Positions 699 through 55,651 of a stretch of 64,000 bases of DNA are shown one piece after another; position 1 is the stretch's first letter; every line of letters starts with the position of its first letter. The stretch covers positions 144,682 to 208,681 of the forward strand of contig CAVXAH010000001.1 of NCBI GenBank assembly GCA_963759775.1, in the 5' to 3' direction. This DNA is from an uncultured bacterium. Lineage in GTDB: Bacteria > Patescibacteriota > Minisyncoccia > Phycocordibacterales > Phycocordibacteraceae. Made by a program: the position numbers and the translations under genes. A model generated the notes under the pieces. That model was not told the DNA's origin and searched no databases. It worked only from the letters and a program-made list of their open reading frames with translations.

Positions 699-701
699 AT
701 C

Positions 702-1817
702 TTAGGTTTGAAGACCACCCACAAGAGAGTAGATAGGCAAAATCACCGCAAGAGCCACTGCTACCACTCCAAGCCACACAATCACGAGGAGTACTGGCTC
801 TAAAATAATTGAAATATTTTTAGTGGTTGTCTCCACCTTTCCTTCGTACGTACTACTTATGGAAAGGAGTGTTCTTGAGAGACTTCCCGCCCGTTCCCCA
901 GTCATCACGAGACGCTGAATTGTTACTGGCATTATCCGATCAAGGTGAGGATATCCTCTAAAGGTTTGTTCAAAAGAATTTCCTTCGGCAACACTTTGTT
1001 CAAGATATATGTACAGATTCTGATACGCCGGTATCGTCGTCGCTTGCGTAAGTGTATGCAGTGCGCGGGTGATAGGAAGTCCTGCCGAGAGTAGGGTGCC
1101 GAGCAAGTAGCTGAAGCGTGCAAGCTCTACTTCTTTGATTAGATTTCCGATACCCGGAGCTCGAAGAAGCATTGCCTGACCAATGAACTTTGTTTTTGAA
1201 AAGAAAAATATAAAGAAAATTAATAAACTGAGAACCGCGAGAAAACCTGGCACCGCAACCGATCCGTGAACAGCAAGAAAATTACCCGCTCCAATCAGCA
1301 TTTTGGTGATAAGCGGAAGTTTTATCTTGAGCTGGGAGAAGACGGCGGCGAGCTTAGGGAGAATAAACCACGCAATGCCAATACCAAGAACGACCGTCAA
1401 ACTAAGTACAAATACAGGGTAAAGCATAGCCGAACGGATTCGCGAACGAAAAAGGCGAGACTTTTCTTCCTGCTCGGCAACAAGTCGCATATTTTGCGAT
1501 AATTTTCCCGACTCTTCACCGCTTCGAATAAGAGACAGCGCCGTCACCGAAAATATGTCTGGGGCGGCGAGGGCCTTCCAAAGGGGAGAGCCTTCCTGAA
1601 TATCTTCACGGATACCTTTGATGAGACGTGTGAGTGCGCGCGACCTACTTCCCTCTTCTATTGTTTGAAGCGCCTCAAGCACCGTCATACCCGAGGTAAT
1701 AAGGGTGCTTAAATTCTGGAGCAAGTAATCACGCTCACCGCCAAGACCAATTTTTGAAAAAGACAAAGAAAGGCGTGCCTTTGTCTCTTGAAAGAGTGTA
1801 GAGAGAAAGTTAGTCAT
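702..1817 (-). CDS. pilC: type II secretion system F / PilC platform protein
   Basis: This is a polytopic membrane protein with duplicated GspF-type repeats (LxxSGxxLxxAL motifs, e.g. LITSGMTVLEALQT and LLSAGLPITRALHT). The ORF extends to 1853, but the Met at 1817 (MTNFLSTLF) gives only a small overlap with pilB. Confidence 0.8.
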   Translation of the reverse strand: MTNFLSTLFQETKARLSLSFSKIGLGGERDYLLQNLSTLITSGMTVLEALQTIEEGSRSRALTRLIKGIREDIQEGSPLWKALAAPDIFSVTALSLIRSGEESGKLSQNMRLVAEQEEKSRLFRSRIRSAMLYPVFVLSLTVVLGIGIAWFILPKLAAVFSQLKIKLPLITKMLIGAGNFLAVHGSVAVPGFLAVLSLLIFFIFFFSKTKFIGQAMLLRAPGIGNLIKEVELARFSYLLGTLLSAGLPITRALHTLTQATTIPAYQNLYIYLEQSVAEGNSFEQTFRGYPHLDRIMPVTIQRLVMTGERAGSLSRTLLSISSTYEGKVETTTKNISIILEPVLLVIVWLGVVAVALAVILPIYSLVGGLQT

Positions 1818-3453
1818 CAAGGGGCGGCTCCGCAACACGAACCAATTCCTCAATTGTCGTCACCCCTTTTTTCACCTTACCAAGTCCGTCTTCAAACATA
1901 GAGACTGTTCCCTGCTTCTTTGCGAGTGCCCGAATAACTTGCGCTGGCGGTGAAGTAAGAACCAATTCTTGTATTTCAGGGGTAATGCGGATGAGCTCAA
2001 AAATGGCAGTGCGCCCACGGTATCCCGTATCACCACAAGCATTGCATCCTTTTCCACGATAGAGAGTAAGTTCTTTTTTTCCAAAGAAACGCGCGGTGAG
2101 TTTTGCGGGAAGCGCCACATCGGAGACCGACACGACGATACTTTGTCTACAATGATCACAAATCTTTCGAACCAACCTCTGTGCAACAATAATATTTAAT
2201 GTTGAGGCGAGAAGAAATGGCTCAATGTCCATCTCAAGGAGGCGTGGGAGAGACGTCGCGGCATCGTTTGCATGAAAGGTAGAAAGGAGAAGATGCCCCG
2301 TAAGAGCGGCGTTCACCGCTATCTCCGCTGTTTCTTGATCTCTAATTTCTCCTACCAAAATAATATCAGGATCCTGTCGCAAAATAGACTTTAGCCCGTG
2401 AGCAAAAGTGAGGCTCGTCTCTGGATTAACTTGAATCTGGTTTATGTTGGCAACTTTAAATTCAACGGGGTCTTCAATTGTGGTGATGTTTACTCCCGGC
2501 TGGTTGAGCGACCGAAGGAGCGTATAAAGCGTTGTCGTTTTGCCAGATCCGGTCGGACCAACAATAAGGACCATGCCGTACGGACGGTCTGCGGCATCCC
2601 GAAAAATCTTCTCGTTTTCAGGAGTAAAACCAATATCGGAAAGCGCAAGGCCGCCAAGATACGTTGCGAGAAGACGAAGCACTACTTTCTCCCCCTCAAC
2701 GGTCGGTACTACAGAGGTACGGATATCCAGTGCCACTCCGTCTTTCATGAATTGCATGGAACCGTCTTGCGCCGCAAAATGCTCATCAATACGGAGCCGG
2801 CTTTGGACTTTGATGCGGTTCAATACGTTTTCATAGCGGTCGCGCGAGATACGACCCGCCTCTTGGAGTACGCCGTCAATGCGAAAACGGAGGGCAACAT
2901 CTTCGGTCTGTGGCTCAAAGTGCACGTCGGATGCATGAAGCGTAATCGCGTCAGAGAGAATTTGCTCAAGCATCTCGGGAGCGATTTTTCCTTTTCCTTC
3001 TATGATGCTCGTCAGCCGAGTGGCAAGCGAGGTACGATAATTTTCAAAAACCACATCAAGGTCTTCAGACAAGGAATACGCTACGTAAATTTCTCGATCT
3101 TTAAAAAGAGTCTTCAGGGTAGCGAGTTTTGGGTTTTGTGGGTCGTCGGTTGTGATGACGATATGCTCAGGTGTTTCCTCAAAAAGAACGACTCGAAGAT
3201 CTCTTGCGGTGGCTTCAGGAATCTTGAGTACCTGTTCCTTTGAGGGTGTTTTTGAGTTGAGGTCGGCGTAGGGAACGCCAAATGATTCAGAAACTGCTTG
3301 TCCCAAAAGGTCGCCCGTAATGAGCTTGTTCTCCAGAAGATAAGTTGCGAGAGGGTTCTTTCCTACTGCTTCCAAATCCTTTTCGGCAACATAGTTCTCT
3401 CGGACGAGAATCTCCCTTAATTTTGCGTCGTCAATACGCATAGGCTTAGGCAA
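1810..3453 (-). CDS. pilB: GspE/PilB-family type IV pilus / T2SS assembly ATPase
   Basis: It carries Walker A GPTGSGKTTT, the Asp box and Walker B region LRQDPDIILVGEIRD, and a C-terminal tetracysteine (CxxC...CxxC) motif. Confidence 0.9.
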   Translation of the reverse strand: MPKPMRIDDAKLREILVRENYVAEKDLEAVGKNPLATYLLENKLITGDLLGQAVSESFGVPYADLNSKTPSKEQVLKIPEATARDLRVVLFEETPEHIVITTDDPQNPKLATLKTLFKDREIYVAYSLSEDLDVVFENYRTSLATRLTSIIEGKGKIAPEMLEQILSDAITLHASDVHFEPQTEDVALRFRIDGVLQEAGRISRDRYENVLNRIKVQSRLRIDEHFAAQDGSMQFMKDGVALDIRTSVVPTVEGEKVVLRLLATYLGGLALSDIGFTPENEKIFRDAADRPYGMVLIVGPTGSGKTTTLYTLLRSLNQPGVNITTIEDPVEFKVANINQIQVNPETSLTFAHGLKSILRQDPDIILVGEIRDQETAEIAVNAALTGHLLLSTFHANDAATSLPRLLEMDIEPFLLASTLNIIVAQRLVRKICDHCRQSIVVSVSDVALPAKLTARFFGKKELTLYRGKGCNACGDTGYRGRTAIFELIRITPEIQELVLTSPPAQVIRALAKKQGTVSMFEDGLGKVKKGVTTIEELVRVAEPPLDD

Positions 3454-5777: not shown

Positions 5778-6503
5778 ATGTCTCAAATTTCCTTTGTCAT
5801 CCCCACCCTCTCCGAAGAGCAGTTTCTGGAGAAAACTCTCGCAAACTTGAACAATCTTTCTATTTCTCACGAAATAATCCTTAGCGATGGTGGAAGCAAA
5901 GACCGCACGCTTGAAATAGCAAGGCGCTATACAAATAAAATAGTCGTGTGGGGTGAGTCCCGTAGGCAAACATTTGGTGAGGCAAAAAACGCGGGTGCGG
6001 CGCTTGCTACCGGAGAGTTTTTGGTTTTTATAGATGCGGATGTGATAATTCCTTCGCCACAAGCATTCTTTGAAGAATTCCTTCGCGTATTTAACGCAAA
6101 TCCAAAATTGCTCGCCTCAACCGTGCCACTCAAACCTCTTGCCGAGAATCATTCACTTGTGGATGCTTTTTTCTGCGCGCCGCTCAATTGGTTCTATGTG
6201 ATTTCAAATAATCTGTTCCATTCAGGCAATTCTTCAGGAGAATTCCAAATGATTCGCCGGAGCGCATTTGAGAAAATTGGCGGCTTCGCGACACATCTCG
6301 CCGCAGGCGAAGACAACGACTTATTCCGTCGCATCGCTCTCCATGGCCGAACGATGTCCTACAGAAAACTCTGTGCCAGGCACTCACTTCGCCGCGCTCA
6401 CAAATGGGGTTGGACAAAGACGTATTATGTTTGGATAAAAAACGGCTTTTCCGTCATGTTTCGCAACAAAGCAGCGTACAAAGAGTGGGCTATAGTTCGC
6501 TAG
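5778..6503 (+). CDS. family 2 glycosyltransferase
   Basis: It has an N-terminal GT-A fold signature: SFVIPTLSEE...ILSDGGSKDRT...FIDADV (DxD). Confidence 0.8.
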   Translation: MSQISFVIPTLSEEQFLEKTLANLNNLSISHEIILSDGGSKDRTLEIARRYTNKIVVWGESRRQTFGEAKNAGAALATGEFLVFIDADVIIPSPQAFFEEFLRVFNANPKLLASTVPLKPLAENHSLVDAFFCAPLNWFYVISNNLFHSGNSSGEFQMIRRSAFEKIGGFATHLAAGEDNDLFRRIALHGRTMSYRKLCARHSLRRAHKWGWTKTYYVWIKNGFSVMFRNKAAYKEWAIVR

Positions 6504-7516
6504 ACGCACGGAACAAGATTTTTAACGAAAATATCTACCGATCTATTCCACGTGTAGCGAAGTGCTGTCTTGCGACACGCTTCGCGCGAAAGCGTAAGGG
6601 CTTTTAGCGCCGCTTCGCCAAGGTCTTCGCTTAAATAACCGTCAACACCTTGCGTAATAATATCGCTTGGCCCCATAACGTTGTGGGCCGCAACGGGCAC
6701 GCCGCACGCAAGTGCTTCAATGATGACAAGTCCGAAGGTCTCGGTGCGCGACGGGAAGACAAGTACATTCGCACATGAAAGCCAGTCAACAAGCGCCTGC
6801 CCGTGTTGATACCCAACGAAATGGGCGTGCGGAAAGCGTTTTTCAAGAGCGGCCCGGTCAGGCCCATCTCCAATGACGAGTTTGGTTCCCGGAAGGCTCA
6901 GCGCGAGAAACTCGTCTACACTTTTTTCCGGCGCAAGGCGTCCGCAGTAGGCAAACACAGGCGACTTCAGGGGTGGAAGGTTTGGTTTTTCGTTACGTAC
7001 AAAAAGTTCGGTATCTACCCCGAGCGGCCAGGACACGAGATGTTTGAATCCGACTATGGAGAGTTCTTTCCGCAGACTCTCGCTTTCCGTTGCAATCATA
7101 GTACGCACCGCCGCACTATGGAACCAGCGCAAGTAAGCGTACGCGAGCTTGGTGAAAAAATCCCCGACGCGCGCCTTAAGGTACAGCTGAAAGTGCGTGT
7201 GATACGAGGTAGTGAATGGAATATTCTCGGATTTACATACAGACCTTGCCGCCAACCCCAAAGTGCCTTCGGTCGTAATGTGTACCGCGTCGGGTTTAGA
7301 TGCTTTTAAAAGACGGCGAAGTTTCTGACGTGGAAAGACAGCTAGGGGTGCTTCAGGCAAAAAAGGAAACGGAACCGTCATAAACTGTTGCGGTTCAATA
7401 ATCGTTACCGTATATCCTCGCTTCTCAAGAAGGTTCTGAAGCATCGTGAGCACGCGCACTGCCCCGTTCACTTGCGGGTGCCATGCATCGGTCACAATAG
7501 AGATGCGGCGTATCAT
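6500..7516 (-). CDS. GT-B fold glycosyltransferase (family 4 / GT1-type)
   Basis: It starts with ISIVTDAWHPQVNGAV and has the C-terminal EX7E-type region PSRTETFGLVIIEALACGVPVAA. Confidence 0.8.
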   Translation of the reverse strand: MIRRISIVTDAWHPQVNGAVRVLTMLQNLLEKRGYTVTIIEPQQFMTVPFPFLPEAPLAVFPRQKLRRLLKASKPDAVHITTEGTLGLAARSVCKSENIPFTTSYHTHFQLYLKARVGDFFTKLAYAYLRWFHSAAVRTMIATESESLRKELSIVGFKHLVSWPLGVDTELFVRNEKPNLPPLKSPVFAYCGRLAPEKSVDEFLALSLPGTKLVIGDGPDRAALEKRFPHAHFVGYQHGQALVDWLSCANVLVFPSRTETFGLVIIEALACGVPVAAHNVMGPSDIITQGVDGYLSEDLGEAALKALTLSREACRKTALRYTWNRSVDIFVKNLVPCV

Positions 7517-7522
7517 ATGGGA

Positions 7523-8137
7523 CTATCCTGATTTTTCAATATCTTCAATAAGGTTTTTGGAGACTGCACGACGACGAACGTAATGCATGGTCACGTAGTA
7601 TGCAATCGTCACGACGGTAATGCCTGCAATGGCATACTGTATGTTTTTGAAAATATTTTCAATGCTTCCTCCAAGGGCACTCCCAAAGAAATAGCCGAGT
7701 GCGAGCAGAAGTCCGTACTGAAATATTGCAACGATTGCGCCGTAGGTAAAAAAAGTGGAGAGCCGCATGCGTATCGCGCCGGCAAGCACGATAAAACCGG
7801 TTGCTACCCCATAGGCGAGCTTGCCGAAAAACATGGTCCGCAATGGATGGTGTTCCCATACTCGACGTACCTCATCAAAATGATTCTCGGAAACCCCAAT
7901 CCTTGAGAGTAAACGCCCCGCGAGTGCAGTGCGTGTCCCAAAGTATCCGAGTGCGTAATAAAACGCATCCTTTCCCATGTCAGTTACAAAAAAGACAATC
8001 GCAAGTACATAGAGATCGAGGACGCCCGCGGCGGCAAGTGTGCCCGCAACAAACGCCACAATTGGTCCTTCAATAACCGAGAGCGGAATGAGAATCCAGT
8101 ATCTATACGTGAGAACGAGCGCGGTGACGCTTTCCAT
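7523..8137 (-). CDS. DedA / SNARE-associated (VTT domain) membrane protein
   Basis: It is a polytopic membrane protein with the DedA-like motif region F..G..AA.G and GKLAYGVATGFIVLAG. Confidence 0.65.
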   Translation of the reverse strand: MESVTALVLTYRYWILIPLSVIEGPIVAFVAGTLAAAGVLDLYVLAIVFFVTDMGKDAFYYALGYFGTRTALAGRLLSRIGVSENHFDEVRRVWEHHPLRTMFFGKLAYGVATGFIVLAGAIRMRLSTFFTYGAIVAIFQYGLLLALGYFFGSALGGSIENIFKNIQYAIAGITVVTIAYYVTMHYVRRRAVSKNLIEDIEKSG

Positions 8138-8172
8138 AATCCGTACAGTATACCCTCACACCGCCCGGCGTC

Positions 8173-8733
8173 TTAGAACTCTAGCGCGAGGGTTGTTTTA
8201 TTCACGAGCGCAGCGAGATCTTCTTGTGTACGCGGAAGCTTTGAGGGGCGCGAGATGTCAACGAAGCCGACCACCGTAATGGTCACGTTCGTACAACCAC
8301 CAAGTGCGCGAGCAGAGCTCACTTTGCGTTCTCCAAGAATGACTTGGGCGTTAACCGGCAAGAGGACGTCAATGTGGTTTTCATAACGCGCATTCATGGT
8401 GTCGGCAATAACGCGATAACCAAAGAGTGGCGAGACGGCGTCGTAGTTACAGTATTTCCCCTCGGCATCCGTACCATCAATTGCAATGATGGTGCCGAAT
8501 GGAAGTTCATCGGCAAAGTCACGTGAACGCGCCGCAACCACTTCTGGGTTTGCGAACGAACCGCTTGCGGTGATGAGAGGGTCGCTGTCGGTTTGTCCGG
8601 GCACAGCGTTATAAGCCGTGAGCGTAACCGGATAGGTATAGACCGGAGATCCCGGTGCAGATGCGGTGGAAGGCGCCGCGGTTGCGGCGCTCCCCATAAC
8701 GAAAAGACCCATAAGGGCTGCAAAAATAGGCAT
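8173..8733 (-). CDS. secreted 3D-domain (RlpA/MltA-like double-psi beta-barrel) protein
   Basis: It has a signal-like N-terminus (MPIFAALMGLFVMGSAATA), then LTAYNAVPGQTDSDPLITASG...AARSRDF...LPFGTIIAIDG, typical of 3D domains. The ORF-track start at 8808 is a TTG that coincides with a TTGACA -35 box. Confidence 0.6.
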   Translation of the reverse strand: MPIFAALMGLFVMGSAATAAPSTASAPGSPVYTYPVTLTAYNAVPGQTDSDPLITASGSFANPEVVAARSRDFADELPFGTIIAIDGTDAEGKYCNYDAVSPLFGYRVIADTMNARYENHIDVLLPVNAQVILGERKVSSARALGGCTNVTITVVGFVDISRPSKLPRTQEDLAALVNKTTLALEF

Positions 8734-8779
8734 AACGATGTTAAAAGCGAAAAGCAGCGCGTAGCTGCTCGTTATTTCC

Positions 8780-8808
8780 ACTATAGCATATTGACAATAC
8801 GCTGTCAA
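8780..8808 (-). promoter_or_regulatory. sigma-70-like promoter for the 3D-domain gene
   Basis: On the reverse strand the order is TTGACA (8808-8803), a 17 nt spacer, then TATAGT (8785-8780). Confidence 0.45.
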
Positions 8809-8840
8809 GTGGTCCGCAAGCCCCGTGCTACCATCCCCAC

Positions 8841-9608
8841 ATGACCGTTTTTGAGAGCGTTCTGCTCGGTATTGTGGAGGGTGTTACGGAGTTTTTACCC
8901 GTTTCTTCAACAGGGCACCTCATCCTCGTAAGTACCCTGCTCGGGATTTCGCAAACCGAGTTCGCCAAGTCGTTTGAGATTGCGATTCAGTCGGGCGCCA
9001 TACTTGCGGTGGTGGTTTTATATTGGAAATCTTTTTTTAATTGGCCTCTCCTCAAGAAAGTGGCTACCGCATTTCTCCCAACCGCACTCATCGGCCTCCT
9101 CCTCTATAAAACCGTAAAAACGTATCTCCTTGGAAATGAGTGGGTGGTGCTTGGGGCGCTCTTTGTGGGCGGCGTGGCACTTATTGCTTTTGAGAAATTC
9201 CACGGCGAGCGAGAAGGCGCGCACGACCTCTCTTCCCTCTCCTACCGCAACGCCGCCCTCATTGGCGTTGCCCAAGCGGTCGCTATTATCCCTGGCATCT
9301 CACGCTCGGCCGCCACTATCCTCGGTGGTCTTTCACTCAATCTCTCACGCGTCGCGATTGTGGAGTTTTCGTTTCTGCTTGCCGTACCCACCATGGCAGC
9401 TGCGACCGGTCTGGATCTCTTTAAGACAAGCGCATCCTTCTCTTCCCACGAATGGATTCTGCTTGGCATTGGCTTCGCCGTCTCATTTTTCGTCGCGCTT
9501 GCAGCCATCCGTTGGCTCCTCCGGTATGTACGCGGCCATTCCTTTGTCGCGTTTGGTATCTATCGCATCATTCTCTCGGTAGCCTTCGCGGCGTTTCTAT
9601 TCTTTTAG
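8841..9608 (+). CDS. uppP: undecaprenyl-diphosphate phosphatase (BacA/UppP)
   Basis: It has the conserved N-terminus GIVEGVTEFLPVSSTGHL and the later PGISRSAATI motif, with eight hydrophobic segments. Confidence 0.9.
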   Translation: MTVFESVLLGIVEGVTEFLPVSSTGHLILVSTLLGISQTEFAKSFEIAIQSGAILAVVVLYWKSFFNWPLLKKVATAFLPTALIGLLLYKTVKTYLLGNEWVVLGALFVGGVALIAFEKFHGEREGAHDLSSLSYRNAALIGVAQAVAIIPGISRSAATILGGLSLNLSRVAIVEFSFLLAVPTMAAATGLDLFKTSASFSSHEWILLGIGFAVSFFVALAAIRWLLRYVRGHSFVAFGIYRIILSVAFAAFLFF

Positions 9609-9694
9609 TGCAGAAATACAGAGGCTCTGCACTCTCTTCTTATCCACAGAAAACCGCGTAGCCGAGCCGTAAAAAGAGCATCCTGTCGTAAAAT

Positions 9695-10879
9695 ATGGGA
9701 GAGAGCATGGATACTGTTATTTTCTTTGCGTATATTCTTGCGCTTTCTTTTTCCCTTTTTGTCGCCGGAGCACTCCTTGGCGCGCTTTTTTCTGCCCCAA
9801 TCCGAAAAAAAATAACCAAGCTTGTGCTTGGCGGAAGACATCGAACTGACCTTGACCTCTCAAAGACCTCTACAAACCCGCTCATAAAACCCGCGAGACA
9901 TCCGTGGGAAGCCGTTGCAACTTTCAACCCTGCGGCGCTCATGCTTGGCGACCGTATTCATCTTCTCTACCGTGCTATCGGAGTTGATGGCCTTTCACGC
10001 CTCGGCTACGCATCTACAAAAAATGCAGTCGTTATTGACGAGCGCCTTACGTCTCCGGCATACAGTCCACAAAACCCACGCATTGGCCTCCCCGGTCATA
10101 GGCGCTACTCACCCGTGCTCTACCCTTCTGGCGGAAGCTGGGGCGGTGTTGAGGACCCACGCATCGTCACCATTTCTGGAAGAGTATACGTTTCTTTTTC
10201 AGTATTTGATGGGTGGGACAACGTACGCATTGGACTTATTTCCATAAGCGAGGAAGATTTTCTCGCAAAGCGATTTGGAAACTGGAGCGCAGTTACTCTT
10301 CTCTCCCCTCCCGGCCAAATTCATAAAAACTGGGTCTTGTTCCCCGAAAAGATAAACGGCAAATTCGCGCTCATTCACAGCATTACTCCAAAAATTGAAA
10401 TCACGTATCGCGATTCGCTTGAAGCCATTGGAAATACAGAGCCCTATATTCAAAGTTGGAAAGGTGCACGCGACGCACGAAAAACACACGGTGAATTTTG
10501 GGACAGCTTTGTGCGCGGTGCCGGTCCACCGCCTCTTAAAACCGAACATGGCTGGTTGCTCTTTTATCATGCAATAGATGAGCGTGACCCCGGCAAGTAC
10601 AAACTCGGTGCGATGCTTCTTGACCTTAATGACCCGACAAAAGTGCTCCATCGTTCAAGCATTCCTGTTCTTTCGCCCGAGGAAAACTACGAGAACGAGG
10701 GGAAACCAGGCGTTGTGTATGCCTGTGGCGCGGTTATTCGGGGAGAAATGCTATACGTCTATTACGGCGGCGCCGACAAAGTGGTGTGTGTTGCCTTCGC
10801 GCCGCTTCGTACCTTTCTTAAGGCACTCATGTCCGGGAAGCGTGCGATACTAGTAAAAGCTCAAAATCCCAACACCTAA
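9695..10879 (+). CDS. GH130-family glycoside phosphorylase/hydrolase with N-terminal membrane anchor
   Basis: An N-terminal TM helix is followed by NP...WE..A.FNPAA, GVEDPRI, GAGPPPLKTEHGWLLFYHA and YKLGAMLLDLNDP...VYYGGADK, the beta-propeller signature of GH130 (mannoside-phosphorylase family). Confidence 0.75.
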   Translation: MGESMDTVIFFAYILALSFSLFVAGALLGALFSAPIRKKITKLVLGGRHRTDLDLSKTSTNPLIKPARHPWEAVATFNPAALMLGDRIHLLYRAIGVDGLSRLGYASTKNAVVIDERLTSPAYSPQNPRIGLPGHRRYSPVLYPSGGSWGGVEDPRIVTISGRVYVSFSVFDGWDNVRIGLISISEEDFLAKRFGNWSAVTLLSPPGQIHKNWVLFPEKINGKFALIHSITPKIEITYRDSLEAIGNTEPYIQSWKGARDARKTHGEFWDSFVRGAGPPPLKTEHGWLLFYHAIDERDPGKYKLGAMLLDLNDPTKVLHRSSIPVLSPEENYENEGKPGVVYACGAVIRGEMLYVYYGGADKVVCVAFAPLRTFLKALMSGKRAILVKAQNPNT

Positions 10880-10883
10880 AACT

Positions 10884-12782
10884 ATGTTTACTGTCCGACG
10901 TTCACCCCACAACCCAATCCTCTCGCCACGCCGCGAGCATCCCTGGGAAGCGCTCGCTGTTTTCAACCCGTCGGTCGTACAGGCCACAGACGGATTCCGG
11001 ATGTACTATCGTGCTCTTTCAAACCCCGACGCCCTCATCTCTCCCTACGCTGGCCAGTCAACTATTGGCGAAGCATTTTCGGAAGATGGGGCGCATTTTC
11101 ACTCACGTCGCCAAGTGCTCGTTCCGCAAGAACCTTGGGAAGCGTTTGGCTGTGAAGACCCGCGCGCAACAGTTTTTGAAGGAGTGACCTATCTCTCTTA
11201 CACCGCGATTGGCGGCTTCCCTTTTTCTGCGGACAACATCAAGGTCGCTATCGCCGTTGCAAAGGATGGGAAAAATTTTACCGAGCGACACCTTGCGACA
11301 CCTTTTAACGCGAAAGCCTTTGCACTTTTCCCCGAGCGCGTGGGCGGCAAAGTGGCCGCACTCCTTGCGGTACACACCGACCGGCCACCTTCAGAGATTT
11401 GTCTTGTGCTCGCCGATCGTGTGGAGGACTTCTGGTCAGCTGAGTTTTGGAAAAAGTGGTATGCCGACTGGCAAAGCCATGCCCTCAAACTTCGTCGAGA
11501 CGAGCGCGACCATGTGGAAGTCGGCGCGCCTCCTATAAAAACTGATGAGGGGTGGCTTCTCTTCTATTCCTATATAGAAGATTATTTTGGCGGTGGCGAG
11601 CGCGTCTTTAGTGTTGAGACGGCTCTGCTTGAGACAAATGACCCTTCAAAAATTGTGGCGCGCACAGAGTCCATCCTCGTTCCTGAAGAAATTTATGAGC
11701 GGTACGGCATTGCGCCAGACATTGTGTTCCCGACAAGCGTCGTGCGAAGCGATGAAGACACGATTGACCTCTGGTATGGCGCGGCCGACACCACCTGCGC
11801 GAAGGCTTCAATTCGCTTCTCTGATTTGCTTGATGCACTCTCTCCGAAAAAGGCGCGCGCGCTTACGCGCGCGAAAGAGAATCCGATTCTCACTCCTCGT
11901 GGAGATGGCTTTGAAAGTCTCGCGGTCTTTAATACTGCGGCGGTTGACATTGACGGCTCGGTTCGTCTCCTCTATAGAGCGATGGACCATGCACACACCT
12001 CTACTATAGGACTCGCAGAGAGTGGCGACGGCATTCATATTGATTCCCGGTCATCGACTCCTGTGTACGTGCCGCGTGCCGATTTTGAGCAAAAACGTGG
12101 AAGCCAAGACGGTAACTCCGGTTGCGAGGACCCACGCGCGGTTGTGATAGACGACCGTCTGTATATGACCTATACGGCGTACGACGGCGTGGTTTCGCCG
12201 CGTGGTGCAATAAGCTCTATTTCTCTTGATGATTTTCGTGCCAAACGCTTTGACGCGTGGAGCACGCCTTTCCTTTTGACACCAGACAATGTGGACGACA
12301 AAGACTTGGCCCTACTCCCGGAAAAAGTAAAAGGAAACTTCTTGCTCTACCACCGCATCAGCAGTCGCATTTGCGCCGATCTTCTTCCTGATCTCGCTTC
12401 CGGCAAACGCGTCTCGCGTTGCATTGAAATCCTTGGACCACGCCACGGCATGTGGGACGGCGTACGCATAGGCATGGCGGGACCACCTATAAAAGTAGAG
12501 GCAGGCTGGCTCTTCATTTATCACGGTGTCTCACGGCACGGCACGTATCGTCTTGGTGCGGCACTTCTTGACCCCTCCGGTACCGAGGTGCTTGCGCGCA
12601 GCGCCGACCCTCTCTTCGAGCCTGAGACTGACTACGAAATGAAAGGTGAAGTTAACCGAGTTGTCTTTTCTTGCGGGCAGGTTGTACGCGGCGACACGCT
12701 CTTCCTCTACTACGGTGGCGCCGATACAGTTACCGGTGTTGCAACCGGCTCTTTGTCGCATATTGTGAAAACGCTGTCATAA
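10884..12782 (+). CDS. tandem double GH130 domain protein
   Basis: There are two complete GH130 modules. The first runs from NPILSPRREHPWEALAVFNPSVV...CEDPRA...LWYGAADT. The second runs from NPILTPRGDGFESLAVFNTAAV...CEDPRA...LYYGGADT. Confidence 0.75.
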   Translation: MFTVRRSPHNPILSPRREHPWEALAVFNPSVVQATDGFRMYYRALSNPDALISPYAGQSTIGEAFSEDGAHFHSRRQVLVPQEPWEAFGCEDPRATVFEGVTYLSYTAIGGFPFSADNIKVAIAVAKDGKNFTERHLATPFNAKAFALFPERVGGKVAALLAVHTDRPPSEICLVLADRVEDFWSAEFWKKWYADWQSHALKLRRDERDHVEVGAPPIKTDEGWLLFYSYIEDYFGGGERVFSVETALLETNDPSKIVARTESILVPEEIYERYGIAPDIVFPTSVVRSDEDTIDLWYGAADTTCAKASIRFSDLLDALSPKKARALTRAKENPILTPRGDGFESLAVFNTAAVDIDGSVRLLYRAMDHAHTSTIGLAESGDGIHIDSRSSTPVYVPRADFEQKRGSQDGNSGCEDPRAVVIDDRLYMTYTAYDGVVSPRGAISSISLDDFRAKRFDAWSTPFLLTPDNVDDKDLALLPEKVKGNFLLYHRISSRICADLLPDLASGKRVSRCIEILGPRHGMWDGVRIGMAGPPIKVEAGWLFIYHGVSRHGTYRLGAALLDPSGTEVLARSADPLFEPETDYEMKGEVNRVVFSCGQVVRGDTLFLYYGGADTVTGVATGSLSHIVKTLS

Positions 12783-12794
12783 ATGCGAAGCGCT

Positions 12795-13544
12795 ATGCCT
12801 GAGCTTGTTATTTTTGACTTAGACGGCACGCTCACAAGAAGCAAACAGGCCCTCGCGCCCTCGATGACAAGACTCCTTGCGGAGCTTCTTGCCCGCACGA
12901 AAGTCGCCATCATTTCAGGCGGCGCATTTCTCCAGTTTGCAAAACAGGTTGTTGCGGAACTTGGGGATGACGCAGATATTGAAAACCTGTACATACTCCC
13001 TACTTCCGGCGCCGCCCTCTACGAGTGGCGTGCACGTGCATGGCAGAAAGTTTATGAAGAGCGCATTTCGGAAAATGATGCGAAACACATTGAAGAAGCC
13101 ATACGTATGGTCTCTCAAGAAACCGGACTCGTAGATTTCTCCACGCCATCCTACGGTGAGCGTATTGAGTACCGTGGCGCACAGGTCACTCTCTCTGTCC
13201 TTGGTCAACAGGCACCCCTTTCCGAAAAAGAAGCGTGGGATCCGACCAAAGAGAAACGCCACACGCTTCAGAGTGCGCTCGCCGCCCGTTTACCCGGATA
13301 CACCGTTACCATGGGCGGCAAGACGTCTATTGATGTAACGCGCGAAGGTATAGATAAGGCTTACGGCATTCACCAGCTTTCAAAGCGCCTCAAAATTCCA
13401 GAATCCTCCATGCTCTACGTAGGAGACGAGCTTGGGGCGGGTGGAAATGACGAGGCAGCTTATAAAACCAATGTGAAAACACGCGCGGTCGCCCACCCAG
13501 AAGAAACGAAAGAACTCATCAATGAATTGCTGGTGCTCGGTTAA
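12795..13544 (+). CDS. HAD-IIB hydrolase resembling eukaryotic-type phosphomannomutase
   Basis: It has the DxD nucleophile motif VIFDLDGTLT, then ISGG, GGKTSIDVTREGIDKAYG and GDELGAGGNDEAAY, as in PMM/Sec53-type enzymes. Confidence 0.65.
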   Translation: MPELVIFDLDGTLTRSKQALAPSMTRLLAELLARTKVAIISGGAFLQFAKQVVAELGDDADIENLYILPTSGAALYEWRARAWQKVYEERISENDAKHIEEAIRMVSQETGLVDFSTPSYGERIEYRGAQVTLSVLGQQAPLSEKEAWDPTKEKRHTLQSALAARLPGYTVTMGGKTSIDVTREGIDKAYGIHQLSKRLKIPESSMLYVGDELGAGGNDEAAYKTNVKTRAVAHPEETKELINELLVLG

Positions 13545-13594: not shown

Positions 13595-15262
13595 CTAGTT
13601 GCGACAAAGTCGCGCGAGACGGATAGTTTCGTAGGAATATTCTCCGCGAAGCGCATTAAAAACTGGCGCAAGTCGGTCGCTGGTTGCTGTTCTAAATGCT
13701 TCGCGTATTTCATCACGCGCACTCTGCGAAAGTAGGTGCTCAAAGTCGTTTTTCACCAGTGTGCCGAGTTCGGCAAGATCTTCAAGATGTTTCACCACCG
13801 TGCTTTCGGTGAGTCCGCGCGCTTTCGCCGCGTCTTTGAGACTCCTTGCATCCCGCACCGCAGAAAGCGTCTCCGCAAGTCTTCCCGGCATCCCCTTAAC
13901 ACTTTTCTTCCCACTTCCTGCTTCCAGATCGCCGCTTACTGTGACCCCGCCCATTACCTTCACATATCTCTTTTGCATTTCTACTATTTCAAGCGGCGGA
14001 AGATTCGAAAACGTGCCGTTCGCGGTTTCTGATAGTTCCCGAAACTCTATATCTTTCTCAAGAATCTCTGGATGTACCGCAAGCGCGCGTTCATTGATAC
14101 CAAGGAGGTGAAGCCCCTCAAGCCGGCGCACACGCGAAAGCGCCACGTACCCTTGCCCATATTCAAATGCTTGCGAAAGGTCTATCACTGCCGCGTCCAT
14201 GCTCATGCCTTGGCTCTTATGTACCGTCATGGCGTACGCAAGGCGGAGGGGCACTTGAGCAATTGAGGCCTTCACCTTCCCATTTTCTTCCACCTGCCAT
14301 TCCATGGGCTCCGCCGTTACATACTTCCCGTCCTTTACCCGTACGACTGGCAGACCGCTCCCCAGCTCAAAATCTGCAACCGTACCGAGTGTGCCGTTTA
14401 CAAATTTCCCCTGGGGAGAGTTTTTCGTAAACATGACTGCCGCACCCATCTTAAGCTCAAGCACCTCAGGCGAAAGACATCCGCGCATAAGACCTTCCAC
14501 CATGGAATCCTTTCCTTTTGAACTCATATAGAATTTCTTGGGAACACCCTTGAGCTTGGCGAGCTCCGCCGCATTGATACGATCTACATCAGCATTGTGC
14601 GAAAAAAGTCTTGGGAGCCCTTCGGGAGTTTTCTCCACTTCCATTTTGCGCGCCATGAGGTGTTCGTAGTGCAGTTCCTCCACTGTACCGCTTCGTATTG
14701 CAGAAAGTACCGAAAGAAAATGCACATCATCTTGGCGGTGTTGCTCCGTGAGATAGCAGATAAGGGGGTTCTGCGCATGCCATGAGGCGGAGTCGTAGGC
14801 AAATTTCACTTCACGACCCATTTTCGCGACGGGCGGAAGCTGAAAAAAGTCGCCGACCAAAATTACCTGCAGTCCGCCAAATGGTTTTGCGACTCGCCGG
14901 ACTTCCCTACACACGGCATCCGCCGCTTCAAAGGTTGCGGCAGAAAGCATTGAAACTTCATCAATAATGAGCACTTTTGCTTTTTGAATACGGCGTGCCA
15001 CATGCTCCTTACTTGCGATTCGGTCTACCTCGGCACGCGAAAGCGAGTCGGCGATACCAATCCCACTCCACGAGTGGAGCGTCATACCGCCCACGTGTGT
15101 TGCGGCAATTCCTGTTGCGGCCGTAACCGAGGGTTCAATGCCGCACGCACGAAGCCATGCGACAAACGCATTAATGGTGTGCGTCTTTCCACTCCCCGGC
15201 TCCCCAGTAAGAAATACGTTTGCACCCGTTTTTAAAATAGTGAGTGCTTCCGCCTGCGTCAT
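13595..15262 (-). CDS. PIF1/RecD-like superfamily 1 DNA helicase with C-terminal HTH domain
   Basis: It has Walker A LTGEPGSGKTH, Walker B VLIIDEVSML, QLPPV, and the late motifs TVHKSQGMS and GQGYVALSR. The likely start is MTQAEAL at 15262; the ORF-track extension to 15364 reads through a repeat element. Confidence 0.85.
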   Translation of the reverse strand: MTQAEALTILKTGANVFLTGEPGSGKTHTINAFVAWLRACGIEPSVTAATGIAATHVGGMTLHSWSGIGIADSLSRAEVDRIASKEHVARRIQKAKVLIIDEVSMLSAATFEAADAVCREVRRVAKPFGGLQVILVGDFFQLPPVAKMGREVKFAYDSASWHAQNPLICYLTEQHRQDDVHFLSVLSAIRSGTVEELHYEHLMARKMEVEKTPEGLPRLFSHNADVDRINAAELAKLKGVPKKFYMSSKGKDSMVEGLMRGCLSPEVLELKMGAAVMFTKNSPQGKFVNGTLGTVADFELGSGLPVVRVKDGKYVTAEPMEWQVEENGKVKASIAQVPLRLAYAMTVHKSQGMSMDAAVIDLSQAFEYGQGYVALSRVRRLEGLHLLGINERALAVHPEILEKDIEFRELSETANGTFSNLPPLEIVEMQKRYVKVMGGVTVSGDLEAGSGKKSVKGMPGRLAETLSAVRDARSLKDAAKARGLTESTVVKHLEDLAELGTLVKNDFEHLLSQSARDEIREAFRTATSDRLAPVFNALRGEYSYETIRLARLCRN

Positions 15263-15321
15263 CGGGCGATTATATCCTAGAGCACGTTCAAAAACCCTAA
15301 CCCGAAGGCGAGTGCATGCAT

Positions 15322-15398
15322 CGGAGGGGGTTGCGAAGCGCGACGGCGCGAGCATTTCAGGCATTTTTTCAGCAGAAAAAATGCCGTACCCGAGGAGG
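15322..15398. repeat. 77 nt intergenic repeat, copy 1 (family A), with 10 bp hairpin at 15360-15385
   Basis: About 85 percent identical to 26059-26135. The hairpin is ggcatttttt-cagcag-aaaaaatgcc. The other copy has ggtatttttt...aaaaaatacc, a compensatory change. Confidence 0.8.
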
Positions 15399-15434
15399 CA
15401 TGCACCCGCCTGAGGGAGGTTTCGGAATTTGCGA

Positions 15435-16121
15435 TTAGTACCCGGCTATGAGTTCCATTCCACTCGAGTCCGATAGTTGCTTAAATCTACTCGTCGTTGC
15501 CGTTGTTTCTGGCTTCCCAATCAAAGTTGCATACACGACAAGCCGTTTATCGTAGGTCATTCCTTCCTTCGCGTCATATATCCAATTTCCATCACACGTA
15601 ATCAGGGTCAGGCGTGCTCCCTCTGTGGGATTGCTTGTAATAGCCCGCATGGGCACTTCGTGGTACGGGTACGTCACAAGTTCGTCAACCGTAAACTGAT
15701 GTGATTCCCCGCGCCGATTCGTCACTTCTATCACCTCTCCGACTTTCAAACTTGCAAGATTCTTGAAAACCCCAGAAAGGCCGAGACCGTTGTTCCGGTG
15801 ACCATACATGACTGCCGTTCCCGACTGCCCCGGAGCAGGGCCGTAGCCATACCAGCCAACGTCATTATAGTTTTTAGGTGCCGCCATGCGATCGCCCTCA
15901 GTGACTCCAAGATCTTGTACAAAAGCGTCTATTGAAAGCGCTGCGATGGTGATACGGAGTGGGCGAAGCTCGGCGAGTGGAATATAAGGATACAAATTTT
16001 GAGTGGGGCTGGTTTCCGTGTGTGGCGCAAATACGAAAGCGTATGCCGTCGTGCGTACCAAAAGAATGGCCGCGACCAACATTGCCGCACCCACTCCATA
16101 CGTGAATAGGTGACGTGTCAT
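15435..16121 (-). CDS. sortase (transpeptidase) with N-terminal membrane anchor
   Basis: It has the catalytic His context VMYGHRN, the TLxTC motif RLTLITCDG and a downstream Arg (KRLVVYA). Confidence 0.8.
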   Translation of the reverse strand: MTRHLFTYGVGAAMLVAAILLVRTTAYAFVFAPHTETSPTQNLYPYIPLAELRPLRITIAALSIDAFVQDLGVTEGDRMAAPKNYNDVGWYGYGPAPGQSGTAVMYGHRNNGLGLSGVFKNLASLKVGEVIEVTNRRGESHQFTVDELVTYPYHEVPMRAITSNPTEGARLTLITCDGNWIYDAKEGMTYDKRLVVYATLIGKPETTATTSRFKQLSDSSGMELIAGY

Positions 16122-16357
16122 AGAGTGCTATCGCTGTGCGAGTACTCGTGTTGGTAGGTCTTGCGCAAATAACCAGACCCAAAGAGAAGGATAGCCAAAG
16201 AGCCCGCGATGAGTATGGCGTTAAAAATTGCACTTGCTCCTGCTCCTGTATTTGGTGTGGTCGTTGCGTACAGTGTTTGCGCAGAAGCCACATTCGCACT
16301 AAGCAACAGGAATGAGGAGAGAGTGAAGGTTCTGACGATGTTGGAGAGTAGTTTCAT
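16118..16357 (-). CDS. 79 aa mini-protein: signal peptide plus PxTG sorting signal only (putative minimal sortase substrate)
   Basis: The sequence is MKLLSNIVRTFTLSSFLLLSANVASA|QTLYATT-TPNTG-AGASAIFNAILIAGSLAILLFGSGYL-RK.... Its stop overlaps the sortase start (ATGA at 16118-16121). Confidence 0.6.
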   Translation of the reverse strand: MKLLSNIVRTFTLSSFLLLSANVASAQTLYATTTPNTGAGASAIFNAILIAGSLAILLFGSGYLRKTYQHEYSHSDSTL

Positions 16358-16405
16358 ACGAGCAGGTGAGAGTGATGCCGCTCGAACGAGAGATGTATGA
16401 CAGAA

Positions 16406-16963
16406 CTAGCGAATGCCGGTATCGCAAGAAATGTCGGCTGTTTTATAACCGCTTGGTGCGACCGTAACATCCACAGGGCTACACGTCGGCATGACCTGAC
16501 CTCCTCGCGCAGTGAGTGTGTAGTTGCCCGGTGGGAGTGAAAATTGAAATGCGCCCTTTGCATCAGACTTCGTCGTTGCAAAGACTTGTGTAGAACCTCT
16601 ACGGTATACAGAAACGTTTGTGGCGTATGGCCTGTCGGCGCACTCTGGGTCCGGAGGGTCGCGCATCACCGGACACGTTGGACCAAGAGATACTATGCCG
16701 CGCACGCCCGAGTTGTAAGGTGAAATTCCCTGCCCGCCATCGGTAGTGCTGGTGGCAACTGGGCACACTGCAAAGTCGCACGAAGGCGACACGCGGCTAA
16801 CGTACGAGCCGTCAGGACAGAGCTTCGCATCTTGTGCACAAATACCTTGATTTTGAGAAGGGGCGGCGTGTTTGTTCGCTGCACTCGCAAGCACGTAGGC
16901 AATTCCCGTTAGTACGGCAATTATGAACACAATTGCTATGGTTTGATTCCAGTTCCAATTCAT
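16406..16963 (-). CDS. membrane-anchored Cys-rich protein with carboxypeptidase-regulatory-like (prealbumin-fold) domain
   Basis: An N-terminal TM (IAIVFIIAVLTGIAYVLA) is followed by two Cys-rich segments and VSVYRRGSTQVFATTKSDAKGAFQFSLPPGNYTLTA. It is the first gene of the sortase operon. Confidence 0.5.
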   Translation of the reverse strand: MNWNWNQTIAIVFIIAVLTGIAYVLASAANKHAAPSQNQGICAQDAKLCPDGSYVSRVSPSCDFAVCPVATSTTDGGQGISPYNSGVRGIVSLGPTCPVMRDPPDPECADRPYATNVSVYRRGSTQVFATTKSDAKGAFQFSLPPGNYTLTARGGQVMPTCSPVDVTVAPSGYKTADISCDTGIR

Positions 16964-17101
16964 GCGCCGCGTGTGTTCGTCGTTCTATGAATACTATGTA
17001 ATACCATTGTCTATCCTGACGTACAGACGTTTTGAATATTACGCCTCGCCGTAACTCTAACGAAGTTAAACGTCGTTACTTTCGCACGTTATACTGTTTC
17101 C

Positions 17102-18799
17102 ATGTCTGATGCGGATTTGAAATCAAAGCTCGTGGGAGTGATGAAAGGAGGAGTGAGCGACACCGAAACTGATTTGAAGGCGGTTAGCCGCGACACTTCT
17201 ATTTTTGAAAGAGTTCCTTCGCTTGTGGTGTACCCAAAGAACAAAGAAGACGTGCAGGCGCTTGTGCGTGAAATTGGAGAATTAAGAGGTAAGAATAAAC
17301 AAGTAAGTATCACGGCCCGCGCAGCGGGCACCGATATGACCGGTGGGCCGCTCACGACAAGCGTTGTCGCTTCCTTTACGAAGTACATGAACCAAGTGAT
17401 TGAGGTAACGGCAATGCCCGAGCGCGCAAAGCTTGGGTGCGCCGGATACGCGGTCACGGAACCCGGGGTCTACTACCGCGATTTTGAAAAGGCAACCCTT
17501 CCCAAAGGCCTCATACTTCCCTCCTACCCCGCCTCACGTGAAATAGCTGCTATGGGCGGCATCGTGGCGAATAATTCCGGCGGTGAGCGCACACTTGAAT
17601 ACGGTCAGACCACGAAGTACGTGGAGGAGCTTGAGTGCGTACTTTCGGACGGCTCGCTTGTGAATTTCAAAGCACTCTCCCCTTCCGAGCTTGAAATGAA
17701 AAAGTCTAAGCAAGATATTGAGGGGGACATATACCGAAAGATGGATGCTCTTATCACCAAGAACGCTGAGCTTATCGCTGCCCACCAACCGAAAGTTTCA
17801 AAGAACTCAGCTGGCTATGCGCTTTGGAATGTGCGCGACCTTAAAAAAAATACCTTCAATCTCGCAAAGCTCATCTGCGGCTCGCAAGGTACGCTCGCCC
17901 TGTGGACAAAGGCAAAGCTTGCACTAGTTTCGCCAAAAGAGCATCGCGCCATGCTGGTGGTGTTTCTCTCCGATTTGAATATTCTTCCTGAAATCGTACA
18001 CCGCGTCCTTCGCTTTAACCCAGAATCCTTTGAGTCGTACGACGAACACACCTTCACGCTTGCCGTACGTTTTCTCCCTGAAATGCTCTCACAGATGGGG
18101 TTTGCGAAGGCGGCGCGCCTTGGTATTTCCTTCCTCCCCGAGGTGGCGATGATAGCTACGGGCGGCACTCCGAAGATGATCCTCATGGCGGAATTTGCGG
18201 AAGACACTATAGAGGAAGCCGACCTCAAGGCGACGGAGTGTCACGATGCACTTAAAGACCTACCCATTAAACTTAAAATAGAAAAAGATGAGAAGGAGTC
18301 GGAGAAATATTGGATTGTCAGACGCGAGAGCTTCAACTTGCTCCGCAAAAACCTCCATGGAAAGTACGCCTGCGCTTTTATTGACGACTGCGTCGTACCT
18401 CCAGAAAGCTACCCCACCTTCCTGCCAGAACTCGCGGCACTTCTTGAAAAATACAAAGACACTTTTATATATACAATCGCAGGACATATTGGAAACGGAA
18501 ATTTCCACATCATTCCGCTTATGGACTTGGAAGACCCAGTCGCAAGAAAGACCATACTTGAACTCACCCCGCAGGTATACGCCCTCGCGATGAAATACGG
18601 CGGAACCACAACTGGTGAACACAACGACGGCATTATCCGCACACCGTATCTCCCTCTCCTCTTTGGACCAGAAATGACCAAGCTGTTTGAAGAAACGAAA
18701 CGTATTTTTGATCCACAAAATATTTTCAACCCCGGAAAGAAGGTTGGTGGTACTTTCGCCGACATTGAGCGCGACATGATTAAGACCGCTAAGGAGTGA
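17102..18799 (+). CDS. FAD-linked oxidase (GlcD / D-lactate dehydrogenase family)
   Basis: It has an FAD_binding_4 region (ITARAAGTDMTGGPL) and the C-terminal motif GGTTTGEHNDGIIRTPY...IFDPQNIFNPGKK. Confidence 0.8.
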   Translation: MSDADLKSKLVGVMKGGVSDTETDLKAVSRDTSIFERVPSLVVYPKNKEDVQALVREIGELRGKNKQVSITARAAGTDMTGGPLTTSVVASFTKYMNQVIEVTAMPERAKLGCAGYAVTEPGVYYRDFEKATLPKGLILPSYPASREIAAMGGIVANNSGGERTLEYGQTTKYVEELECVLSDGSLVNFKALSPSELEMKKSKQDIEGDIYRKMDALITKNAELIAAHQPKVSKNSAGYALWNVRDLKKNTFNLAKLICGSQGTLALWTKAKLALVSPKEHRAMLVVFLSDLNILPEIVHRVLRFNPESFESYDEHTFTLAVRFLPEMLSQMGFAKAARLGISFLPEVAMIATGGTPKMILMAEFAEDTIEEADLKATECHDALKDLPIKLKIEKDEKESEKYWIVRRESFNLLRKNLHGKYACAFIDDCVVPPESYPTFLPELAALLEKYKDTFIYTIAGHIGNGNFHIIPLMDLEDPVARKTILELTPQVYALAMKYGGTTTGEHNDGIIRTPYLPLLFGPEMTKLFEETKRIFDPQNIFNPGKKVGGTFADIERDMIKTAKE

Positions 18800-55551: not shown

Positions 55552-55651
55552 AATTTTTTGGGAATAATCCCCTGCCGCTTGCGCGGCGTATAAAAAAGAG
55601 GAGTTATCTGGGAGGCGCGATGTTTTGCGCCTCCCAGATAAAATGAAACTC

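Follow-up and report, generated by a model that had tools for sequence, protein, structure and literature searches.

Sortases are usually seen as a means of displaying folded proteins or of building pili. Among unrelated sorting enzymes, the short Ser/Thr-rich substrates of exosortase (PEP-CTERM) and archaeosortase (PGF-CTERM) are, in Haft's descriptions, said to consist of a signal peptide, a low-complexity Thr/Ser stretch and a C-terminal sorting domain. Class F sortases were first characterised in Propionibacterium acnes and are present in several copies per genome in Streptomyces and Actinoplanes. Their physiological role is reported to be unknown in reviews and in a 2026 study, and a quadruple srtF mutant of Actinoplanes missouriensis had no phenotype (PMC13251363). 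Two described substrates and one accessory protein are relevant here: SspA of A. missouriensis, a class E-anchored protein for which disorder is predicted throughout the mature part (PMC13293333); GspA of Actinomyces oris, a sortase substrate glycosylated through LcpA (PMC6381275); and SafA, a 52-amino-acid membrane protein encoded next to and downstream of the actinobacterial housekeeping sortase, which has one transmembrane (TM) helix and an FPW motif and is not a substrate (PMC9282373). The DNA analysed in this study, referred to as the window, is a stretch of 64,000 nucleotides of contig CAVXAH010000001.1 (GenBank assembly GCA_963759775.1) from an uncultured member of the Patescibacteriota, and all positions given below refer to it. 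The window encodes a small open reading frame (ORF) of 79 amino acids, a putative passenger-less sortase substrate precursor, overlapping the start of a sortase gene, and the two genes are proposed to form a dedicated substrate-enzyme pair.

The small ORF (16118-16357) and the sortase gene (228 amino acids, 15435-16121) lie on the minus strand with a co-directional upstream gene (185 amino acids, 16406-16963). These features were identified from their ORFs and translations, supplemented by Pfam for the sortase and, for the small ORF, by two homologues (P0001 and P0002) and by family profile matches. The intergenic distance is 48 nt between the upstream gene and the small ORF and -4 nt between the small ORF and the sortase gene, the TGA of the former overlapping the ATG of the latter (tctATGA). 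Read in order, the small ORF comprises MKLLSNIVRTFTLSSFLLLSANVASA, QTLYATTTPNT, G, AGAS, AIFNAILIAGSLAILLFGSGYL, RK and TYQHEYSHSDSTL. Residues 1-26 (16280-16357) are a predicted Sec signal peptide ending in VASA, called heuristically from the translation and the A-x-A pattern of the family, with K2 and R9 in the n-region, an h-region, and A-S-A at positions -3/-1. The motif TPNTG occupies the LPXTG position (residues 34-38, 16244-16258), as judged from the translation and from its invariance in the family. We infer both cleavage sites, for signal peptidase and for sortase, from this arrangement; together they would leave a mature peptide, QTLYATTTPNT, of 11 amino acids (residues 27-37, 16247-16279). 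The TM helix of the sorting signal (residues 41-64, 16166-16237) was placed by Kyte-Doolittle hydropathy, with a 19-mer maximum of 2.23, and by column information in the family; it retains N46, S53 and G60 at heptad spacing, followed by Y63-L64. The basic cytoplasmic tail RKTYQHEYSHSDSTL (16118-16165, including the stop that overlaps the sortase ATG) consists of R65 K66 and a further 13 residues. The small ORF therefore has every feature by which a sorting signal is recognised: TPNTG, a membrane-spanning segment and R65 K66. A loose sorting-signal filter applied to the 64-kb window was passed by four ORFs, among which only the small ORF contains xPxTG; it is the sole canonical sorting signal in the window. 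A promoter and terminator scan of 15200-17300 gave counts no higher than those in shuffled sequence.

A word-based search returned P0001 and P0002, of 71 and 74 amino acids, which are 79% and 66% identical to the small ORF product and are both encoded directly upstream of a sortase gene. When the window was aligned with loci L001 and L002 of related genomes, the frame of the small ORF was the only one of the six to be free of stop codons in both comparisons. Third codon positions hold 32 of the 51 nucleotide differences from L001 and 40 of the 72 from L002. Between A26 and S42 nearly all codons have changed synonymously with respect to L002, and the protein differs only by L29V and S42T; more generally, residues 26-43 are preserved through almost wholly synonymous codon changes, and the residues AQTLYATTTPNTGAG are kept in two relatives in which almost every codon differs synonymously. 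QTLYATTTPNT itself is identical in L001 and carries a single conservative change, L to V, in L002. Because synonymous codon changes have left the residues intact, the mature peptide and motif are under strong purifying selection, and the small ORF is a real, selected gene. Gene callers miss it. In a Logan contig with an identical sortase, gene calling puts a 63-amino-acid antisense ORF (16209-16400, plus strand) in its place, and the 79-amino-acid protein was not returned from a collection of 5.8 billion proteins.

The wider family was approached from the sortase. An alignment of the enzyme was used to scan one genome per species, which yielded 80 loci; in 13 of those that have the closest sortases, an ORF of 76-161 amino acids with the same architecture lies just upstream. 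The metagenome-assembled genomes (MAGs) concerned are labelled Kaiserbacteria, Adlerbacteria, Parcubacteria/Paceibacterota, Minisyncoccia or Patescibacteria, and several are labelled Saccharibacteria. A profile of these ORFs matched 327 clusters (90% identity) at E<=10 among 8000 candidates scored; the 120 clusters listed span 60-168 amino acids, none has a Pfam domain, and their meaningful names amount to hypothetical protein. An exhaustive hidden Markov model (HMM) search of 1.84 billion representatives (50% identity) gave 571 matches at E<=1e-3 and 177 at E<=1e-10, with lengths of 60-138 amino acids in the best 150 of the 571. Named family members come solely from Patescibacteria (Kaiser-/Adlerbacteria, Paceibacterota), and neither Pfam nor NCBIfam has a model for the family.

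Family members share both ends of the predicted mature peptide and differ in what lies between them. The signal peptide has A at -3 in 109 of 114 members and A at -1 in all 114; the first mature residue is Q in 114/114 and the second T in 110/114. The spacer that follows is 45% Thr, 11% Gly, 9% Ser and 9% Pro, with virtually no K, E, L or F (K 0.1%), and measures 11-72 amino acids with a median of 22. At 11 amino acids the window peptide ties the minimum, so that on these predicted boundaries it stands at the short end of a wide range of lengths (11-72 amino acids). The motif region reads T-P-G-x-P-N-T-G-A-G-G-D, in which P, T and G of the motif are invariant (120/120), N is present in 118 of 120, and the first motif position is T, A, V or I. 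A stripe of conserved residues runs through the TM helix, counted from the motif P as N at +11, L at +15, S at +18, G at +25, Y-L at +28/+29 and R at +31, with column information of 3.1-3.8 bits at +11, +15, +18, +25, +28 and +29. With intervals of seven residues between them, N, S and G fall on one face of the helix.

These results bear out much of a sequence-only reading that had preceded this analysis. On rechecking of the ORFs and translations, all that it stated about the sequence was correct (signal peptide, TPNTG, helix, basic residues and the ATGA overlap), and the full tripartite sorting signal without a real passenger that it had recognised belongs, by codon comparison and family membership, to a genuine conserved gene. 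It had also proposed looking beside orthologous sortases for a conserved ORF of 70-90 amino acids with signal peptide, xPxTG, TM helix and basic residues, and the conservation found is strong. Full-text searches of the literature on sortases in the candidate phyla radiation (CPR)/Patescibacteria, on PNTG, on class F and on Thr-rich small LPXTG proteins gave no account of the family, and LPXTG is unmentioned in the top-ranked papers that name these CPR taxa. The mini-proteins thus appear to be an undescribed and unannotated substrate family with a variant sorting signal, operating within the well-known sortase mechanism.

The small ORF family is strictly linked to this sortase clade. In profile searches over all fetched loci, small members adjoin the sortase, most often on the same strand and separated from it by -4 to 208 nt; convergent or divergent arrangements occur in a few cases. 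A size-unbiased scan of metagenome contigs was made with a degenerate DNA pattern encoding PNTGAGGD. It gave 121 matches, of which about three quarters were unrelated (for example internal sites of apparent chitinase-type and gut-bacterial proteins) and were removed by a filter for a TM helix and a basic tail after the motif, leaving 31. Complete small proteins account for 18 of these. A sortase lies within 300 nt of 15 of them; for the remaining three, no more than 317 nt of DNA is left on the shorter side, so every assessable case (15/15) is accompanied by a sortase. Another 13 are larger (151-562 amino acids) or truncated at the 5' end by the contig boundary, and for seven of them a sortase lies no more than 700 nt away. 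Three look-ups that started from the substrate, on long contigs, returned the same substrate-sortase pair. An identical module, PNTGAGG...N..L..S......G..YL.R, ends proteins of 150-560 amino acids, many of them beside the same sortase clade; because the PNTGAGG-type module also closes larger proteins with passengers in this setting, it is best regarded as a working sorting signal. Its most common bearer in the scan sample is the passenger-less version.

The 228-amino-acid enzyme matches PF04203 at E=2e-20 and has an N-terminal membrane anchor. An alignment of 30 homologues shows an invariant triad of H108, C176 and R193, encoded on the minus strand at 15798-15800, 15594-15596 and 15543-15545, respectively. 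An AlphaFold2 model with a mean predicted local distance difference test (pLDDT) score of 88.5 has the sortase fold, and Foldseek returned only sortases for it, with class C, D and E entries at about 1e-9 and identities of at most 24%. On the invariant triad and this confidently modelled fold, the sortase looks active. Sequence and fold searches of the PDB confirmed a sortase without settling its class, and gave no closely related structure. The class_F_sortase model NF033748 scores 113.2 bits, short of its curated cut-off of 166 bits, while the models for the other classes score 28 (E), 25 (GN), 24 (D) and 19.5 bits (C). Six relatives score 99-139 bits with NF033748, all under 166, and two relatives carry the NCBI label class F sortase. 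As class F is the best class model but stays below its curated cut-off, the enzyme is described here as class-F-like, not as a class F member. The names attached to its closest homologues in a profile search point to Patescibacteria and Chloroflexota-type MAGs, not to Actinobacteria.

Several further observations concern these sortases. The anchor of the window enzyme (residues 2-31, 16029-16118, minus strand) ends in T-A-Y-A|F, and homologues keep [V/T/I]-x-A at this place; an AXA-like site of this kind recalls the one in A. oris SrtA that SafA shields from signal peptidase (PMC9282373). No SafA-like small ORF lies downstream of the sortase at the window locus. At WWE3-type loci (L052, L055, L056, L061, L065, L066, L070, L072, L073 and L081), whose sortases are more distant but belong to the same superclade, a conserved protein of about 200 amino acids is encoded directly upstream of the sortase; it ends in ...ATVCYG...ELP[KEN]TG, a TM helix and a basic tail, as a dedicated substrate with a real passenger would. 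Since the WWE3-type loci also have a dedicated substrate upstream, the order substrate-then-sortase is likely to be old in CPR. A second sortase clade, present as a paralogue in MAGs that also have a first-clade sortase in four cases (L006/L051, L009/L075, L011/L034 and L013/L048), has different mini-ORFs upstream (L034 3552-3719, L053 3504-3701 and L037 3727-3954, in the coordinates of those loci). Those of L034 and L053 encode 55-65 amino acids, in which a single hydrophobic helix at the N-terminus precedes P-x-LPNTG-T and a hydrophilic tail; a C-terminal TM helix is missing. That of L037 encodes a signal peptide, AQT and a poly-Thr stretch ending in TTTPGLPNTGGGAASE at the stop codon, also without a TM helix. 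Judged by these layouts, the second-clade mini-ORFs may encode minimal sortase substrates of a reversed or TM-less type.

The small ORF product resembles canonical LPXTG substrates in its signal peptide, xPxTG motif, hydrophobic helix and basic tail, and in being encoded beside a sortase with a His-Cys-Arg triad. It differs from them in that the passenger is missing (11 residues; family median 22), in the first motif position, which is T/A/V/I and not L, and in the conserved A-G-G-D after the motif and the conserved TM residues. The NPXTG HMM NF033846 gives it 13.1 bits (cut-off 23.5), and a match to TIGR01167 or NF033846 at E<=1 was obtained for only 6 of 44 relatives. SspA and the EF2685/EF0750 family are likewise sortase substrates without a recognisable folded domain, and EF0750 has about 100 amino acids, but neither is a poly-Thr peptide of 11-70 residues; NF053819, the 105-position profile for EF2685/EF0750, does not match the small ORF and scores about 15 bits on its relatives (cut-off 47). 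Matches of relatives to WGxxGxxG_fam, GVDTG_CTERM, AimP_fam, PGF_CTERM and EF0750_LPXTG were far below the cut-offs and were set aside as signal-peptide or TM noise. GspA is a precedent for a glycosylated sortase substrate, a modification that is proposed here, but it has no sequence similarity to the small ORF, and no LCP gene was seen among the Pfam-annotated neighbours. The short PEP-CTERM and PGF-CTERM substrates reportedly have a similar architecture, with an unrelated enzyme family, motif and set of organisms. The class F model is by far the best-scoring class model for the window sortase, whereas the whole CPR clade scores 99-139 bits with it and has an adjacent dedicated mini-substrate. 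SafA, too, is a membrane protein of small size whose gene is strictly linked to that of a sortase; it has no sorting motif, whereas the small ORF lies upstream and has a complete sorting signal. A SafA-like identity was ruled out by gene order, by topology and by the lack of FPW or PGP in the small ORF, and a sortase-polymerised pilin by a mature peptide without Lys and the lack of any Pfam domain (no Ig-like CnaA or CnaB).

The features described above suggest the following course of events. The 79-amino-acid precursor would insert in the membrane as a hairpin formed by the signal peptide and the C-terminal helix, and signal peptidase would cut after VASA. The membrane-anchored, class-F-like sortase would recognise TPNTG together with the conserved face of the substrate TM helix, the N/S/G face packing on a membrane partner that would most simply be the anchor of the sortase itself. 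Cleavage between T37 and G38, within the stretch YATTTPNTGAGAS that is predicted to be cut at T|G, would be followed by transfer of QTLYATTTPNT, whose C-terminal Thr would become linked to an amine on lipid II or peptidoglycan, the presumed acceptor. In the end the wall would carry short poly-Thr peptides of ribosomal origin in place of folded surface proteins. An N-terminal Gln tends to cyclise to pyroglutamate and thereby to lose its amine, so the grafted peptides would probably be pyroglutamylated at the N-terminus, and they may also be O-glycosylated. With pyroglutamate at one end and the C-terminus tied to the wall, such a peptide would be protected at both ends.

Poly-Thr, free of Lys and variable in length, the spacer looks like the wall-spanning linker of LPXTG proteins minus its cargo. 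Its composition is what would be expected of an O-glycosylation scaffold, and composition and variable length together would fit a wall-embedded spacer or glycan carrier over a folded or polymerising protein. We consider it probable, if only just, that a dedicated sortase grafts a bare, short, Thr-rich peptide onto the peptidoglycan or wall. That the small ORF encodes a true sortase substrate is more likely than this; that the peptide is glycosylated is less likely. The sequence-only reading had offered three roles, namely a ligated peptide, a released signalling peptide, and a decoy or regulator of the sortase. A poly-Thr, length-variable, low-complexity spacer with conserved ends favours the first in the form of a wall-ligated peptide and speaks against a sequence-specific signal; by itself, this anatomy would be compatible with a regulator or decoy. 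A wider proposal is put forward tentatively and may well be wrong: many Paceibacteria-type CPR may graft passenger-less poly-Thr oligopeptides (11-70 amino acids, probably pyroglutamate-capped and O-glycosylated) through a dedicated sortase, as a gene-encoded wall modification that would stand in for teichoic-acid-like polymers in genomes too small for them and would supply the first assigned cognate substrate of a class-F-like sortase. A bolder variant would have the conserved Q-T N-terminus serve as the acceptor, with the sortase building head-to-tail poly-Thr chains.

A number of observations weigh against wall grafting. The LPXTG_anchor HMM TIGR01167 gives the small ORF 11.1 bits, below its cut-off of 15.9; the close sortase homologues at L003, L004, L010-L013 and L020 have no adjacent mini-substrate; glycosyltransferase association (GT2, PAP2 or GT4 near the module) is seen in a subset of loci only; and a peptide of 11 residues would hardly emerge from the wall. 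The effective product could instead stay in the membrane, where the precursor or its C-terminal remnant (GAGAS-TM-RK) would regulate or stabilise the sortase or report its activity in the manner of SafA, with the poly-Thr part as a disposable spacer or decoy. The strict one-to-one linkage with the sortase would suit such a role, as would a TM helix that is unusually conserved for an anchor (N/S/G at heptad spacing, then Y-L), and the AXA-like end of the sortase anchor, TAYA|F, is comparable to the site that SafA masks in A. oris SrtA (PMC9282373). The same TM stripe is found, however, in the sorting signals of the proteins of 150-560 amino acids, and for that reason it is a property of the sorting signal. 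Further points against this role are the invariance of P-N-T-G and the strong purifying selection on the mature peptide. SafA, moreover, depends on FPW and has a single TM helix, and its gene follows srtA (PMC9282373), whereas the small ORF is upstream, has two hydrophobic segments and lacks FPW. A membrane-embedded product is accordingly judged unlikely.

The sortase could also act as a maturation protease, the acyl-enzyme being hydrolysed or the peptide cyclised so that a free Thr-rich signal or pheromone is released. The tiny predicted product, its conserved N-terminal Gln with the capacity to form a pyroglutamate cap, and the conservation of the peptide sequence among close relatives all agree with this. 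Across the family, on the other hand, the middle of the peptide is low-complexity poly-Thr of very variable length (11-72 amino acids), unlike a receptor-specific ligand, and no conserved receptor or kinase was found nearby, a MASE1 histidine kinase lying near the pair only in the lineage sampled by L083-L086. The signal peptides do bear a weak resemblance to AimP/Phr-type models, but the HMM matches are far below the cut-offs, and we give release of a free peptide a slim chance. A chance just as slim is given to transfer to an acceptor other than peptidoglycan, whether further copies of the peptide joined head to tail into a mucin-like poly-Thr polymer or a specific protein that would receive it as primer, cap or tag. 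Both mature ends are conserved (Q-T and T-P-G-x-P-N-T) with the middle left free, and pilus-polymerising class C enzymes rank among the structures most similar to that of the sortase, although Foldseek fails to separate classes C, D and E. With Lys at 0.1% of the mature peptides, canonical isopeptide polymerisation of the pilin type is excluded; the N-terminal Gln is prone, by general chemistry, to cyclise and lose its amine; and the upstream gene proposed as protein partner is not conserved. Finally, the small ORF might be what is left of a decaying surface-protein gene, now stripped of its passenger and without any function. Larger proteins share the A-x-A|Q style of signal peptide and the sorting signal, and their existence makes passenger-domain loss a plausible origin of the family. 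A remnant as such is most improbable: hundreds of diverged members keep the minimal architecture and the sortase linkage, and the peptide is under strong purifying selection.

If wall grafting is correct, sortases would also modify the wall with bare peptides, by way of widespread passenger-less substrates that are each paired to their own enzyme. Class-F-like sortases would gain an assayable cognate substrate, and the almost uncharacterised envelope of CPR/Patescibacteria a concrete component. The mini-substrate family is invisible to current annotation, with an antisense call replacing the gene of this genome, and the PNTGAGG-type signal could become a model for finding the substrates of this clade. 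A naturally minimal substrate-sortase pair may also be of interest for the engineering of protein ligation. Nothing that was computed points to chemistry beyond the sortase paradigm.

No neighbour other than the substrate-sortase pair itself is conserved among the fetched loci. The product of the upstream gene (16406-16963, minus strand) has an N-terminal TM anchor, eight Cys residues and a transthyretin-like CarboxypepD_reg domain (PF13620, E=8e-8). This Cys-rich, prealbumin-like protein had been suggested at the outset as the nucleophile partner of the sortase. By BLAST against all fetched loci, a homologue occurs only in the closest relative, L001 (72% identity), with none beside L002 or at any other locus, and the gene was ruled out as a conserved partner.

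A glycan-related cluster (6500-13544) lies 2-9 kb from the sortase module. It contains a GT4 gene (6500-7516), a BacA/UppP-like membrane protein recognised by eye from its VEGVTEFLPVSSTGHL motif (8841-9608), two GH130 mannoside-phosphorylase-like genes (9695-12782) and a HAD-like gene, also assigned by eye (12783-13544). At L083-L086 and L010, a 240-amino-acid GT2 and a PAP2 phosphatase are encoded directly upstream of the substrate or sortase, and L006 has GT2 and GT4. This glycosyltransferase/PAP2 neighbourhood is a weak hint at a glycan link and not evidence for one.

Two other parts of the window encode surface or export functions. A surface protein of 865 amino acids (53299-55896, minus strand) without a Pfam match combines a TM anchor with about 60 consecutive prolines, four Ig-like repeats and a stretch of Gly; after these come an internal LSQIPYTGLDLGP, a TM helix and a C-terminal domain that measures about 250 amino acids. 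Its xPxTG and TM element, which is not C-terminal, could be an atypical sortase site; the internal motif is absent from all other fetched loci. Type IV pilus/type II secretion genes, a set typical of CPR, occupy 258-3453 on the minus strand and include a T2SSE ATPase (1810-3453), a T2SSF platform protein (702-1853) and a prepilin-like ORF (258-698) whose product begins MKENRRGFTLLEMLL.

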